In this document: positions 33,001-42,000 of the stretch, one piece after another | Layout: the number at the start of each line of letters is the position of its first letter | Position numbering within the stretch: the first letter of the stretch is position 1 | NCBI GenBank assembly: GCA_965202985.1 | Contig: CBDBCF010000001.1 | Span: forward strand, 1,920,001 to 1,984,000 | Direction of reading: 5' to 3' | DNA from: Longimicrobiales bacterium | GTDB lineage: Bacteria > Gemmatimonadota > Gemmatimonadetes > Longimicrobiales > Gaopeijiaceae | Length of the DNA stretch: 64,000 nucleotides | Made by a program: the position numbers

Positions 33001-36000
33001 CCAGCTTCGCCAACTCCGCGCGCGTCGGCGTCTCGATCCCCGACGACCGCGCCAACTCTCGCAACCACGCCTCGTAGCCCGTGCCCCCGTCCCGACGCAC
33101 GATCGAACGCATCGCCGCGTCCGCCTCCAGCGTCGTTGAGTCCACGCCCAACGTCCCGACCCCCAGCAGCCCTAAATCGTCCAGCAGCCTCAGCACGCGG
33201 CCGAACGCCGCGACGTGTGCCTCCACGCTCGACCGCTTGCGCGTCTTCGACAGGCTCGAATGGTCCGGCGCGGGTTCTTCGTCAGCTCGTACCCCAGGAA
33301 CGCGCGCAGCGAAAACGAGTCCCTGCAACGCCAGGCGATGCCTCGCTCCGACGAGATGCCCTCCAAGTACCCCACCATCAGCCCCGGGAAGTACACCCCG
33401 GAGGATTCCTCGGCCGGCCCCCGTTGCCCGCGCAGAACTCCGCGCACACCTCCTCCTCGAACTTGTCGAAGCTGTCCTCCCGCAACAGCTTGTCCAGCGC
33501 CCGATAGAACGGATGCTCGGTCACGCCGAGCTCGCTCGTCGCCACGACCAGCGCCTGCTGGTGCACGCTCGGACGCTCGCCTACCGTCCTTCGAGGGGAT
33601 CGTTCCGTCACTCCAATCTAATCCCAACCAATCGCCGGCTCGTAAGGACTTTATCCACGGGCTGCTAGTCGATAGCACGTATGATCAGATCCATAATATC
33701 TTCCAACTCCTTACGGTTGAGCACACTCAGCTCCCGAACCGCCTGAACCGCACTCAAATTTCTGCACGCACGAACAAGCCACTGAGCATTCGCTAGTCGT
33801 TGATTGCCACTCAACTGGATGGTCTCGGCGAGTCGTGTAACAAAGGCCTCTCTAATCTCATGCGATCCCATCACCGAATTTCGTGATACAATCATAACGA
33901 CCAACTTTTCCCAGTATGTCTTGCTCAACCGGACTAAGTCTCGAACCTTCTTCGTCAGATCGGCGTCGTTTCGACCTACCTGAACCGCAAGGCGCTCTCT
34001 CCACCAAGTTCGGGCAAATGGGCAATCCACGTAAACCGTTCGATTGCCTCTCGCTTCCGGCAGACCACTAAGCCGCCGGAGAGCCGTCCGAACGCAATCA
34101 TCCATCATCTTCGCACGCTTCTTCCCGGCCCTCCGAAGCGCCCGGTCAATTCGTTCGGCACCACCGGCGTACGAGCCATTGGCCGCCAGGTAGGCCGCCT
34201 TGATCCGGCCCTGCCGAATGTGATGACAGGTGATGTTGCCCCAGAAGGACGATCGGCATGCGATCCGCGGAGTGAGCATCTCCCATACGTCGTAGAGCAT
34301 CAGCTGGGTGTCCACGGGAGGCTCCCGGTATTCCGTTTCCGTAAGGGGATGTGGACAGAGGGAAACGGTCCCCTTGCCGGTCACCGGTATACGCCCGATA
34401 AACTCCAGAAATTGGTGGTCTTCCTGCAAAGCATACAAGAATTCTTCTTGAAGCTCGCCACCCTTCTCTCGCAGAAGATCCCTTCGGAGCCTCGAGAACG
34501 CTGCATTGTCAAGCTCCTTGTTTCCCACTTTAGCCATTAACTACATTTCTCCGTTGTCGCTACTGTCAAGCTGCTGATGTGGGTACATGGCCGTCGCTAC
34601 CTCTTCAGGCCGGAACTCATCGTCCATCCATCTAGGAAGGTCTTCATCGTCGAGGTATTCTGCCAGTGCAACAAGATGTCGATCCGTCTGCCAGCGCTCT
34701 TCTTCGCGAAAATCACGCTGAAGTAACGCAAAGCAGGCCGTCACTATGTGCGTCATGATATGATTCCGAATATGGCTTCCCGTACTGTATCGTAAAAAAC
34801 GATGCAAATCGGTGCTTAAGGTCACTACAAACCGAAATGGTTGGCTTTCTGCGTCCACCATAAACGTACCATCTGACAAGTCTCCATCCTGTTTGAGATA
34901 CAACAGATGCAATACCGTAGGCTTCATCCGCACGACAGGTCCGATCGCTATACGGGAGCCTTTGTCGATTTTCACCGTTCGACCCGTCCACGAAGGGTGA
35001 ACATCATCCCGATCGGAACACAACGTCAGCGTTCGTGACTGAAATGCTATCACCATTGGAGTAAGCAACGGCGATTCTCCCATGTCGTCAGCACTCCAGG
35101 ACACCTCCTGTGTAGCCTCCGCCGAGAAGTGTACTCTCCGGTAGGACGACACAGGCGATGACACTGCGCAACAATATCTAGCGGCTCCTTCCCTAACTAA
35201 TCGTCGAACCAATTCAGCGTTCTGCATATCATGCTGCAACAAGAACGACGACCGTTCCTTTCCTGGTCTGAAGTCGATAGCATACTGGCCACTCGGATAC
35301 GACATGTTCCCTGCTTCTAGAACGGGATACCGTCTGGATTTCGTTGCGTTCGCCTCGGAATTCGCGAGCGCAACGATCTGAGTCATCGACCTCCTCCTTC
35401 TTTGATTCCCGGCGCTACCTCAACCACGAGACTGGCGCTAGGCGCCTGGACGGCGTCAAAATATCCTGGTAGCGAGTAGCTTGCTTCCACCGTGACCTTT
35501 TGGCCTTTGGCAAGGGAGCCCAGTTGGACGCCAACGACTTTGCCGTTCTCCATCAGCAGCACGCAGCCGTCCGCGGCCGTACCGTCTACAAGAACATCGC
35601 ACAATTCTACGTCGGCCTTGGCGTCGCGAACTATACGGTCGCATGTTGAATCGATATTCTCGTCCACAAACAGGCGCAACTCCGCGGATCTACACTGGCG
35701 ATGGCATGTGACCTCAATGCGTCGTCGGTCAACTGACACGGGCACCGTGACGGCGCTGAATAGGGACTCGACGCTCCGCCTCCTGCTTCGACCCGATGGA
35801 TCTACCGTGCTATTACTAGGCTCGCGTCTTCTGGATCGCCCTTGCTGTGACCGAACAGGGTTCCTCTCAGGGCTCCTTTGGCCAACAGCCACTGGTGTGG
35901 CCCAAGAGTCACTGCCACCCCCAAAGTCAAGCACGAGAATGTCGTCCGGACTAAAGGCAGTGTCGGAGACTTCATTGGTATTGTCCAGCAGCCAGTCACG

Positions 36001-39000: not shown

Positions 39001-42000
39001 GCCCGAAGGCCGACGAACGCGACATATTCGACACCGCCGCCTCCGAACGAAACGCGATTTCCGTAGGCCTTGCCGTCTAGCAAGGGGTTGGCGAAAGGGA
39101 CCCACGCCGGACAGTAGTCTCTGTACCGCTGCGTAGGACGGACGTGCGGACGACCGCGGGAATAGGCACGCTTCTTCAGGAATATCTTTCTCGGAACCTC
39201 GCCATTGTTATTCTTGTGCCGCTTGTACAATGTGTCATCGTCCAGACGGGACTCGGTCCCATAGTGTCCAAGACGAGGGATCGCATCCGTACCAGCTAGC
39301 CAATCGCGAAGGAAATGTCGTGTGGCTTCAAGTTTCATGCTTTGAGTGCAGATGCGGCTAAAGACGTTCGGAACATAGCCGGAATAAGATATCAGCTCCT
39401 CAAAGACCTCTCCGCGCCAGTGAAAGCCATTCGGGTTGTCTTCGGAACGGGGCTGGTCATTGACTAGGCGGTAGGCTGGGAGACGAGTCCATTCCCCGTG
39501 TCGAGCGTCTTCGTACGTTTGGTATTCGATCCAGAAGAAAGGTATCCCGTACCGATTCGAAGCGCGCATGCAGTCTTGAACGAATCGATACGTGTCGGTG
39601 TGCTCAGCTGAAGTATTATTGAAGACGATCACGTCACCGCGGCTCGGCTGAAGAATCTTGTTCTCCAACAACACAAACAGCAACATGCCGCTAGAGCGCC
39701 CGCCCGAGAACTTCACGACGTGCGGCAAGTCCAGATGTTTCTTGGCACGGTAGCGGAAGCGGTACTCTTTGGTGGGATCGTGCCGTGGGGGCGGCTTCCG
39801 CAACTTGCCGGAGACGACGAGCCGTGGGACGGCCTGGAGCGTGAGCTGCGAATCGCTGCCGTTCCGCTCTCGCATTAGTCGGCGACCTCGGGTAGGCGTG
39901 GTGGAGAGAAGAGTTCCGCTGCTGGGTCTTTCATGGCGTGCATGGTCACTCGTAGTACGATGGCACGGCGCTCCGTTCGTGGCAAGTGGCGCGAGTGGTA
40001 CCGGTCCTACCGAAGGCCGACCTTCCAAGCTCCCCTTCCAGCGGCTAGCTTCCGAGGTCCCCGCCATCTTCTCCCCGCCGCCAAGTTGCCCGTGCCGCCC
40101 ACCCACCCCGGCGTCCCCCTTCCCCGGTCCGCGCCCTTGGACCCCGCCGAGACGGCCCGCTACGCCCGGCACTTGGTGCTGCCCGAGGTGGGCCGCGACG
40201 GCCAGGAGCGCCTCAAGGCCGCCCGCGTGCTGCTGGTGGGGGCCGGCGGGCTGGGGTCGCCGGCGGGACTGTACTTGGCGGCGGCGGGGGTCGGCACGCT
40301 GGGCGTGGTGGACCCGGACGTGGTGGACGCCACCAACCTGCAGCGCCAGATCCTGCACGGCACCTCGGACCTGGGCGCGCCCAAGGTCGATTCCGCCAGG
40401 CGAAGGCTGGCCGAGGCGAACCCGCACGTGGCCGTCGAGACGCTGGCCGCCAAGCTGACGGCGGACAACGCCCTGGGCGTCGTGGCGGAGTACGACGTGG
40501 TGGTGGACGGGAGCGACAACTTCCCCACGCGGTACTTGGTCAACGACGCCTGCGTGCTTTCCGGCAAGCCCAACGTGTACGGGTCGGTCTACCGGTGGGA
40601 GGGGCAGCTGTCGGTCTTCGGCCTGGAAGGGGGACCTTGCTACCGCTGTCTGTTCAGGGAGCCGCCCCCGCCGGGCGCGGTCCCCAACTGCGCGGAGGCC
40701 GGCGTCTTCGGCGCGCTGCCGGGGGTGATCGGCGCGGCACAGGCCATGGAGACGATCAAGCTGGTCCTGGGCGCCGGCGACGTGCTGGCGGGCCGCCTCC
40801 AGCTCTTCGACGCGCTGGCGTATCGGTGGCGGGAGGTGGAGGTGCGCCGGGACCCCGCGTGCCCCGCGTGCGGCGATCGTCCCACCGTGACGGAGCTCGT
40901 CGACTACGACGCGTTCTGCGGCGCGGCCGGCAACGGAGCTGGCGCGAGCGCGGGCGCAGCCGACGACGAAGACCAAGTCGGCCGCGTCCACCCCGGCGAG
41001 CTTGCGGGCGTCATGTCCGGCGAACCCCGGCCCTTCCTCTTGGACGTGAGGGAGCCGTTGGAGTGGAGGGCGATGAACCTGCGGTCGCTGGGCGCGGTGC
41101 TGGTGCCCAAGGGAGAGATCCCCGAACGCCTGCAGGAAATCCCCAAGGACCGCCCGGTGGTGGTCTACTGCCACAGCGGCGTGCGCAGTCTGGACGTGGC
41201 GCGGACCCTGGCCGCCGCAGGCTACGATCACGTGCGGAACCTGGAAGGCGGGATCGCGGCGGTGCTGGAAGAGACGCCCCAGATGGTCGGTTCGTGACCG
41301 ACGGCCCGCGCAGCCCGGCCGGCTCGCATCCCGGCATGCCGGCCGCCGACGCCCCCTGGCGCCGGACGCTGGTGCGGCTGGCCCAAGCGATCGACAACCG
41401 CCGCGAGGTGCGGCTGCTCTACGGCTCCAGCCTGAGCGTTCGCTTGGTGCTGCCCCACGCCCTGGGCGTCAGCCGGTCCGGGAACCCGGCCTTGCTGGCC
41501 TGGCAGCAAGGAGGCGGCGCGAAGGAGGCCGAGACCGGCTGGCGGCAGTTCAAGTTGGACAAGATCGCCGCCGTGGACGTGTCGGAATCGACGTTCCGCG
41601 CCCCGGCGCCGGGCTACGACCCCAAGAACCCGGGCCTGTTCGGAGTCGTCAAAGCGATCTGAAGCGGGACGGGCCTCCGCGCGCCGACCGACCCCCCGTG
41701 CGCCCGGCCCCTCGGCCGCGTGAACTCCCTCGGCTGCCCCTTCCCGCCGGCGCGTCCTCCAGCACCAGCTCGAAGTCTTCCTCGTAACCGACCTTGTCCG
41801 GCGAAGGCAGGTAGCGGGACAGGTCGATCTCCGCCCCGGCCAGCTCCCGGTCGAAGGCGGCCATGTCTCGCCGGGCGGCCTCTTCGCCGGTGTCGGAGGT
41901 CGAGTACACGATGCGGCCCAGCTTCTGGTCGCCCAGAGCCAGCTCGCGGCGCACGAGTTCGGCCTCCACGAACGCCTCGCGAACCGACGGAAAGCGGTAC

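Follow-up and report, generated by a model that had tools for sequence, protein, structure and literature searches.

Where phosphorothioate (PT) systems couple the sulfur writer to an ATPase, this ATPase is of the P-loop type, as described for Dnd and Ssp in the accessible text of PMC12914056 and as extended to BrxC of BREX type 4 by its homology to SspC. BrxP of BREX type 4 and TdpABC, both PT writers of PAPS-reductase type and covered by the same text, show that new PT scaffolds exist. In Ssp, the PAPS-reductase-type enzyme, which has three core cysteines and a pair of Cys at its C terminus, comes with an ATPase, a cysteine desulfurase, and a DUF262 neighbor (accessible parts of PMC12914056 and PMC9646914), and in the neighborhoods read here, ssp genes hold a slot before PbeAC. 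In Dnd and CxC/PbeABCD, a scanning core recruits PT enzymes or a cytosine methylase (accessible parts of PMC10853773 and PMC6459918). GHKL ATPases of the paraMORC2 type, which occur in restriction–modification contexts with methylases, carry an ExxxH motif within the S5 domain's C-terminal portion (Iyer, Abhiman, and Aravind 2008, PMC2292703); the terms PAPS, PP-loop, and Dnd are absent from the accessible main text of that paper, as is "GHKL" from the accessible text of PMC10853773 and PMC12839542. In the literature searched, whose scope excluded subscription papers, figures, and most supplements, we found no description of the operon presented here and nothing on DUF6339 or PDC-M33, and searching for GHKL, phosphorothioate, and defense system together led to Shedu only.

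The operon lies in a window of 64,000 nucleotides from a Longimicrobiales bacterium. As the survey's finding had it, five genes of low GC content (0.51 to 0.59 per gene versus 0.686 for the genome) form one operon, which is real and intact. Five minus-strand ORFs of 458, 389, 648, 281, and 290 aa occupy positions 33665 to 39875; genes 1 and 2 overlap by 4 nt (GTGA), as do genes 3 and 4 (ATGA), and gaps of 3 nt separate gene 2 from gene 3 and gene 4 from gene 5. The features are as follows:

38499 to 39875, minus strand: gene 1, putative DNA sulfur writer, PP-loop protein (PAPS-reductase fold), 458 aa
37333 to 38502, minus strand: gene 2, cysteine desulfurase of the IscS/DndA/SspA type, 389 aa
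35383 to 37329, minus strand: gene 3, GHKL ATPase, PDC-M33A-like, 648 aa
34541 to 35386, minus strand: gene 4, protein B, PDC-M33B-like, 281 aa, without a named family
33665 to 34537, minus strand: gene 5, protein C, DUF6339-like, 290 aa, all-helical
30173 to 33664, no strand assigned: remnants of insertion sequences (IS) that separate gene 5 from the DUF262 gene, namely IstB_IS21 and an rve-type transposase plus fragments of DUF772 transposases
28388 to 30172, minus strand: DUF262 (GmrSD_N) protein carrying DGQQR, its C terminus HNH-like
26807 to 28084, minus strand: multicopy DUF772/DDE transposase that borders the low-GC stretch on its downstream side

A second copy without the desulfurase, also reported before, was found again at C1:1751.6 to 1756.5 kb, where PP-loop, GHKL, B, and C genes are present. 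The DUF262/GmrSD-like gene is indeed downstream behind IS pieces, the last of which directly abuts the stop codon of gene 5. Among the matches listed for the contigs of four runs, no joint bridges this IS block. The DUF262 gene matches GmrSD_N and HEC-05, and its relatives, 40 to 47% identical, stand directly behind gene 5 in other loci; it is probably a displaced sixth gene. Since a profile search gave no SspE match for it, its sulfur-sensing role is putative. We rejected as a system member the divergent gene at 39933 to 41297, whose product we take from its motifs to be ThiF/MoeB-rhodanese-like: its GC content is host-like (0.72) and it is absent from the recurring neighbors.

Gene 1 encodes a PAPS-reductase-fold PP-loop enzyme with the cysteine set of SspD and DndC, and its sequence is nearest to phage NinC. 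It carries SGGRSS at 57 to 62, C176, C354/C357, and a C-terminal C454/C456 pair, together with family-specific inserts at 123 to 129 and 200 to 280. In an alignment of three SspD, two DndC, three phage NinC-like, and six family proteins, P169, C176, K181, R291, E294, C354, and C357 are invariant, and the C-terminal Cys pair is common to SspD and NinC. Identity is 29 to 34% to NinC and 19 to 23% to SspD/DndC. By fold, PAPS/APS reductases match best (Z 9.8, rmsd 3.8, 179 aligned), tied with GMP synthase (Z 9.4) and the tRNA thiolase NcsA (Z 9.1), with the tRNA thiolase TtuA at Z 7.9; Foldseek gave no match at E 0.001, and family profile searches gave no tRNA thiolase family.

The PADLOC values that had been reported were reproduced: gene 1 matches SspD at 1.1e-9 (BrxP 1.2e-4, DndC 0.04), gene 2 matches DndA/SspA at about 1e-137 (DndA 1.8e-137), and genes 3 and 4, side by side, match PDC-M33A at 5.8e-29 and PDC-M33B at 3.2e-10. 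Yet the SspD model gives gene 1 only 36.5 bits, where true SspD reaches 355 to 454, and the DndC model TIGR03183 gives it 12 bits, against a cut-off of 290.4. The operon shares with Ssp the features listed above but differs in having a GHKL rather than a P-loop ATPase and an insert of ~150 aa in gene 1, and PADLOC finds no SspB or SspC match in genes 3 to 5 at E 0.1. With Dnd it shares a DndA-like desulfurase and, as with CxC/PbeABCD, the logic of a scanning core that can take on either kind of writer; profile searches of genes 1 to 5 gave no DndD ABC ATPase or DndE. The genome itself (92% complete) gave no match to DndC or SspD, which counts in favor of the operon as a PT writer. PglZ, BrxC, and BrxL are missing from the operon, the sole Brx match among six proteins being BrxP at 18 bits. 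TdpC, which in contrast to the writer proposed here is reported to work without a partner ATPase, appears in no row of the fold or sequence matches of gene 1, a comparison made without a TdpC model or sequence.

How constant is this gene set? A PP-loop profile retrieved 72 metagenome loci, of which 56 have genes of the GHKL–B–C trio, 15 have a flank of less than 1.5 kb, and 1 has no PP-loop match. Gene 2, which scores 370 on TIGR03235 (below the cut-off of 480), has counterparts in 17 of the 56 and none in 39. The desulfurase is optional; four genes, rather than the five first described, make up the core. The supposedly fixed order holds among close relatives and breaks down at distance, where 30 loci are PP-first and 26 trio-first. 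When a single GHKL protein was used to scan GTDB, 19 loci were found: the PP-loop gene is upstream in 17, and all five genes are contiguous in 11, of which three have a gene that is split. By FastTree, the operon desulfurases form a group of their own, away from the housekeeping one, and broadly track the PP-loop tree.

The loci that lack a desulfurase favor a reading we regard as improbable, namely that the mark is free of sulfur, the enzyme adenylating DNA or moving another group and the desulfurase only building its Fe-S cluster. PP-loop enzymes are adenylating enzymes, and the phage NinC proteins, the nearest annotated relatives, have no desulfurase in any of three neighborhoods read. Against this, a dedicated desulfurase lineage is retained in both gene orders, and DndA itself is present in 32% of Dnd taxa only, i.e., missing from about two-thirds (accessible part of PMC10853773).

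The trio has a history of its own. Gene 3 has the GHKL motifs E35/N39, D118-G120-G122, and G145/G148; E35, N39, D118, G120, G122, G145, G148, and G241 are invariant in the aligned GHKL proteins, and MutL/MORC3 matches are weak. An ExxxH lies at 416 to 420, where expected for paraMORC2, and in 21/21 GHKL proteins checked (at about residue 364 to 468). We call gene 3 paraMORC2-like, an identity that rests on this one motif. For protein B, a PDB profile search returned designed proteins and weak rows only, and the Atlas has unnamed clusters; for protein C, the Atlas has nothing. Searches with the predicted fold of C (pLDDT 94.6) returned nothing usable (top Z 6.7 over 64 residues, Foldseek top E 0.8), and fold searches found no solved relative. 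DUF6339 is matched by 27 of 58 members of the gene 5 family, and genes 4 and 5 are naturally fused in some relatives.

Genes 3 to 5 follow the order of the PDC-M33/DUF6339 trio; matches to PDC-M33, an untested PADLOC candidate, are weak, and the PP-linked branch is separate. In 17 regions around PDC-M33A matches (excluding L201, a match on a 1.7-kb contig, and two center genomes; alignments A5 to A7 omit L023 and L045), the trio is PP-linked in nine, Dcm-linked in five, linked to neither in three, and to both in none. One genome, G250, has a PP-linked and a Dcm-linked trio. PP-linked GHKLs form a single branch (SH-aLRT 99), and in the sister clade many have a C5 methylase; the two writers occur together in none of those sampled. 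The top-scoring PDC-M33A loci are Dcm-linked, and trios also occur without any PP-loop enzyme. The trio is an older, PP-independent module.

What might connect gene 1 to the trio? A complex prediction of gene 1 with gene 5 scores 0.83, against 0.00 in the best of three controls, with contact agreement between runs of at least 91% and partner pLDDT of at least 83; the score mark was reached by 116 of 157 solved pairs versus 2 of 215 mismatched pairs, a calibration that applies only roughly to our own alignments and to three chains. Gene 1 is thus predicted to bind gene 5, through its inserts (123 to 129 and 200 to 280) and residues 63 to 77 of protein C. For gene 1 and protein B, no contact is listed as confident, which weighs neither way. 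Among PP-linked proteins, 47 of the 58 aligned and 7 of 8 others carry the docking motif of C, as against 0 of 11 PP-less proteins; its pattern was drawn with the interface already seen, and the split tracks one branch of kin and so counts as one event. The motif is missing from the top-scoring, Dcm-linked loci. On the PP-loop side, D123 (98%) and H204 (100%) are conserved, and both are changed in all five proteins in which gene 1 relatives are fused to Dcm, while all catalytic residues checked are kept there.

A predicted protein partner would also suit an explanation that we find very unlikely, in which no DNA is marked: the trio would be a stand-alone defense, and the PP-loop enzyme would either regulate the trio or modify some small molecule, tRNA, or protein. 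QueC-like proteins play such roles in other defense systems, the trio occurs without any PP-loop enzyme, and no DNA-binding fold was recognized in B or C (by profile search of B and fold search of C). The predicted dock, however, is formed by the inserts rather than by PP-loop or Cys-motif residues, and DNA is indicated by the Dcm exchange, by the fusions to Dcm, and by the slot shared with Ssp.

That slot is seen in the neighborhoods. Among 301 genomes of the host phylum, there are eight full-length PbeA loci (22 partial matches left out): seven are directly behind ssp genes, with SspD confirmed in six, and the eighth, in G061, is behind this operon. PbeA adjoins the operon in 10 loci, these PbeAs being about 60% identical to Ssp-linked ones. 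Counting against the operon as the PT writer, all four Pbe-linked genomes checked have DndC or SspD elsewhere. Since cytosine methylases, too, are found paired with Pbe/CxC modules (accessible parts of PMC10853773 and PMC6459918), the slot signals a writer, not strictly PT. TIGR04096 is near the operon in six loci; with PbeAC, it is a neighbor shared with Dnd and CxC/PbeABCD. A PT-binding SBD-HNH nuclease (NF045808) adjoins the operon in four loci and has two relatives in the genome itself, yet such enzymes seldom adjoin dnd (<3.6%; accessible part of PMC7461809), which weighs against PT. We rejected these neighbors as support for PT.

SBD-HNH neighbors would be harmless in a host without PT, which is one argument for an alternative that we judge unlikely: that the complex makes a sulfur-modified base (e.g., thio-cytosine) instead of a backbone mark, replacing the C5 methylase at the same base. 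The partner replaced in the trio is a cytosine methylase, gene 1 is found fused to Dcm, and the tRNA thiolases are close in fold. What speaks for the backbone is that the motif order of gene 1 aligns with SspD and DndC, that the operon takes the place of SspABCD, and that TIGR04096 and PbeA accompany backbone PT systems.

We therefore favor, with a probability of roughly 60%, the reading that the operon is the modification module of a restriction–modification-like defense, writing backbone PT on host DNA, and hold it to be just as probable that it represents a new architecture for PT writing, in addition to Dnd, Ssp, Tdp, and BREX-4. A sulfur-modification defense other than Dnd, Ssp, or BREX-4 was the survey's finding, and it is still the best-supported reading, with three new lines of evidence: the slot ahead of PbeAC that it shares with Ssp, the trio's exchange of Dcm and PP-loop enzyme, and the predicted docking with matching residue loss. 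What has changed is that the core is of four genes, their order varies, and the trio is older and PP-independent.

TdpC reportedly adenylates the DNA phosphate, which is then replaced by sulfur. In this operon, GHKL, B, and C would form a DNA-engaging complex, with an ATP-driven GHKL clamp in the scanning role held elsewhere by the P-loop ATPases DndD, SspC, and BrxC. Protein C would recruit the PP-loop enzyme, which probably carries an Fe-S cluster on C176/C354/C357 and may, like TdpC, adenylate the DNA phosphate before sulfur is put in place. Sulfur and cluster could come from the operon desulfurase or a housekeeping one, and the mark might be read by an exchangeable restriction partner (DUF262 here, PbeAC-type modules at other loci). 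If this is true, a GHKL-scaffolded writer would add one more architecture, whose target sequences are probably new and which present dnd/ssp/brx surveys would overlook, and PDC-M33, DUF6339, and an orphan MORC-like ATPase family would gain a role.

A broader scenario is speculative, and we would bet against it: a MORC-like GHKL clamp may be an epigenetic chassis into which different writers plug, one branch being fitted with a C5 methylase and the other, via a DUF6339 adaptor, with a sulfur writer from the phage NinC family. If the writer is of NinC origin, NinC proteins and the Dcm–PP fusions of conjugative elements would write sulfur on DNA alone, shielding mobile DNA from restriction. Two patterns found no gene 1 relatives in viral contigs, and a plasmid search gave one partial match only. 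The operon yields a direct hypothesis for phage NinC proteins, which are the nearest annotated sequences to gene 1 (65 phage records, about 30 to 33% identical in parts) and share the PP-loop and Cys motifs; unlike gene 1, they are about 280 to 300 aa long, have no docking inserts, and stand alone in all three phage regions read.

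The operon in the window is a real and widespread variant of DNA-modification defence and is apparently unpublished; within its reach, our literature search found no description of it. It encodes a PP-loop (PAPS-reductase-fold) enzyme, PP (gene 1), a cysteine desulfurase (gene 2), a GHKL ATPase (gene 3) and proteins B and C (genes 4 and 5), with a GC content of 0.51-0.59 compared to 0.686 for the genome. The survey's family matches for these genes were obtained again.

28388-30172: DUF262/GmrSD_N gene, split from the operon by IS debris that starts at the gene 5 stop
33665-39875, minus strand: operon of five coupled genes
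38499-39875, minus strand: gene 1, PP enzyme
39933-41297, plus strand: host gene, presumably ThiF/MoeB-rhodanese-like by its motifs, transcribed away from the operon, whose start is 57 bases off

Since IS elements separate the operon in the window from its putative restriction partner, this locus may write without restricting. The host gene probably marks merely the insertion site. Further low-GC stretches (0.56-0.59) lie at 18000-20000 and 62000-64000. A second copy of the operon (C1:1751.6-1756.5 kb) has four genes and lacks the desulfurase, the two PP enzymes being 38% identical. Its PP gene, an open frame of 458 codons, carries a 17-base G/C run at its 5' end (C1:1756566 in the window's own genome, G000; L023 14566-14582), and the closest ATG upstream, on the far side of that run, is in another frame. 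This reflects either phase variation or an error in the reads; G/C runs of at least 12 bases number 27 in the genome.

The predicted model of gene 1 (pLDDT 77) has a HUP/PP-loop fold, with PAPS and APS reductases as top matches (Z 9.8) and GMP synthase and NcsA tied. In an alignment that includes SspD, DndC and NinC-like proteins of phages, gene 1 retains the PP-loop, R-C176-T-x3-K, G-x-R291-x2-E294 and C354-x2-C357, the C-terminal Cys pair being common to gene 1, SspD and NinC. Gene 1 is 29-34% identical to NinC-like proteins and 19-23% identical to SspD/DndC, and its inserts near 119-131 and 200-280 are absent from all of these. We put the probability that the mark is a backbone phosphorothioate (PT) at roughly 60%; a thiolated base in its place is unlikely.

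The operon belongs to the PDC-M33/DUF6339 family of GHKL-B-C trios: genes 3 and 4 match PADLOC candidate families, and protein C is DUF6339-like, with 27/58 of its family members matching DUF6339. It probably also belongs to paraMORC2: the GHKL motifs of gene 3 are intact, and the ExxxH that PMC2292703 states for that family was found in 21/21 GHKL proteins checked. Its proposed working resembles that of Ssp and Dnd, whereas by their membership tests it falls outside both. Protein B, which matched no named family, has 1718 matching clusters at E 0.001, and five of the best 150 are B-C fusions. Protein C has a confidently predicted fold, for which a search found no solved relative. In L053 (11832-13820) it bears ~370 additional residues without a Pfam family, and G246 (L045 2261-16836) has two operon versions in tandem, the second with two C-like genes and then a B-C fusion.

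How tightly is PP linked to the trio? The PP gene lies upstream in 17/19 GTDB loci, and trio genes are present in 56 of 72 metagenome loci recovered by a PP profile, some of them near-duplicates (the rest had a short flank, 15, or no PP match, 1). PP comes first with the desulfurase in 14 of the 56 and without it in 16, and last in 23 without and 3 with it. A mark free of sulfur is improbable, and PT remains the preferred reading. From the trio side, in samples spanning two groups, the PDC-M33A model matches 13/400 genomes around G302 and 6/301 around G301; the 17 regions read were linked to PP (9), to the C5 cytosine methylase Dcm (5) or to neither (3), never to both. G250 has one PP trio and one Dcm trio, the writer immediately preceding GHKL in each, and three plasmid trios without PP sit amid restriction-modification genes. 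Overall, trios lacking PP may outnumber those that have it. Because PP-linked GHKLs form one branch (SH-aLRT 99; 16 rows plus one truncated locus), we infer from the tree that PP joined the trio in a single acquisition. One clear exception to the linkage is a Dcm-PP fusion without the trio (L113), amid ParB-like and topoisomerase-like genes that we take to be of conjugative-element type. Such fusions occur in L113 (5897-8326), L115 and P0127-P0130.

Co-folding of gene 1 with B and C predicts that gene 1 binds gene 5. Gene 1 scored 0.83 (best of three controls, 0.00), the score mark being attained by 116/157 solved and 2/215 mismatched pairs, counts only roughly valid for this job. The runs have 91% or more of their contacts in common, with a partner pLDDT of 83 or higher, and place C 63-77 and 124-135 against PP inserts 123-129, 203-210 and 268-274. 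The C-side motif, defined post hoc from the interface and common among kin, occurs in 47/58 aligned and 7/8 further PP-linked proteins, 0/11 PP-less proteins and 0/76 control N-termini. D123 and H204 are altered in 5/5 Dcm-PP fusions (gene context known for 1/5), with the catalytic set intact. Beyond the observed anatomy, motifs, co-occurrence and exchange of partners, we propose that a GHKL-B-C complex would engage DNA and C would recruit PP, which would use ATP to activate a DNA phosphate and then insert desulfurase-derived sulfur; TdpC reportedly uses an adenylated intermediate. That the operon leaves no DNA mark is very improbable; the proposed PT mark would be read by a separate nuclease module.

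Of 84 loci that contain both PP and GHKL, 6 have a DUF262 gene within the operon and 10 have one immediately behind it (L044 was placed in the latter group after the locus was read). Also next to the operon are PbeA, mostly with a PbeC-like ATPase (10 loci), TIGR04096 (6 loci) and an SBD-HNH (PT-binding) nuclease (4 loci). A control search for PbeA across 301 host-phylum genomes matched 28, with eight full-length places, of which seven are directly behind ssp genes (SspD confirmed at six, SspB and SspC at the seventh) and one behind a PP-GHKL operon. Operon-linked PbeAs are 68-89% identical among the pairs listed and ~60% to the nearest Ssp-linked group; more distant PbeAs are likewise Ssp-linked. 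Against an argument from this slot count the pairing of Pbe modules with methylases too (PMC10853773, PMC6459918), DndC or SspD elsewhere in 4/4 Pbe-linked genomes checked, and the normal avoidance of dnd loci by SBD-HNH enzymes (PMC7461809). The case for phosphorothioation is good but unproven. No match to DndC, SspD or full-length PbeA was found in the window's own genome.

In L170-L176, SspABCD is followed directly by a sigma70-region-4/alpha-CTD protein, PbeA and a PbeC-like ATPase, a pairing not found in the portions of the literature examined. The window's own genome has two SBD-HNH-like relatives of PT-binding nucleases (C1:2632112-2634438 and C1:926586-927302), one of which adjoins a fragment of the sigma-region-4 protein.
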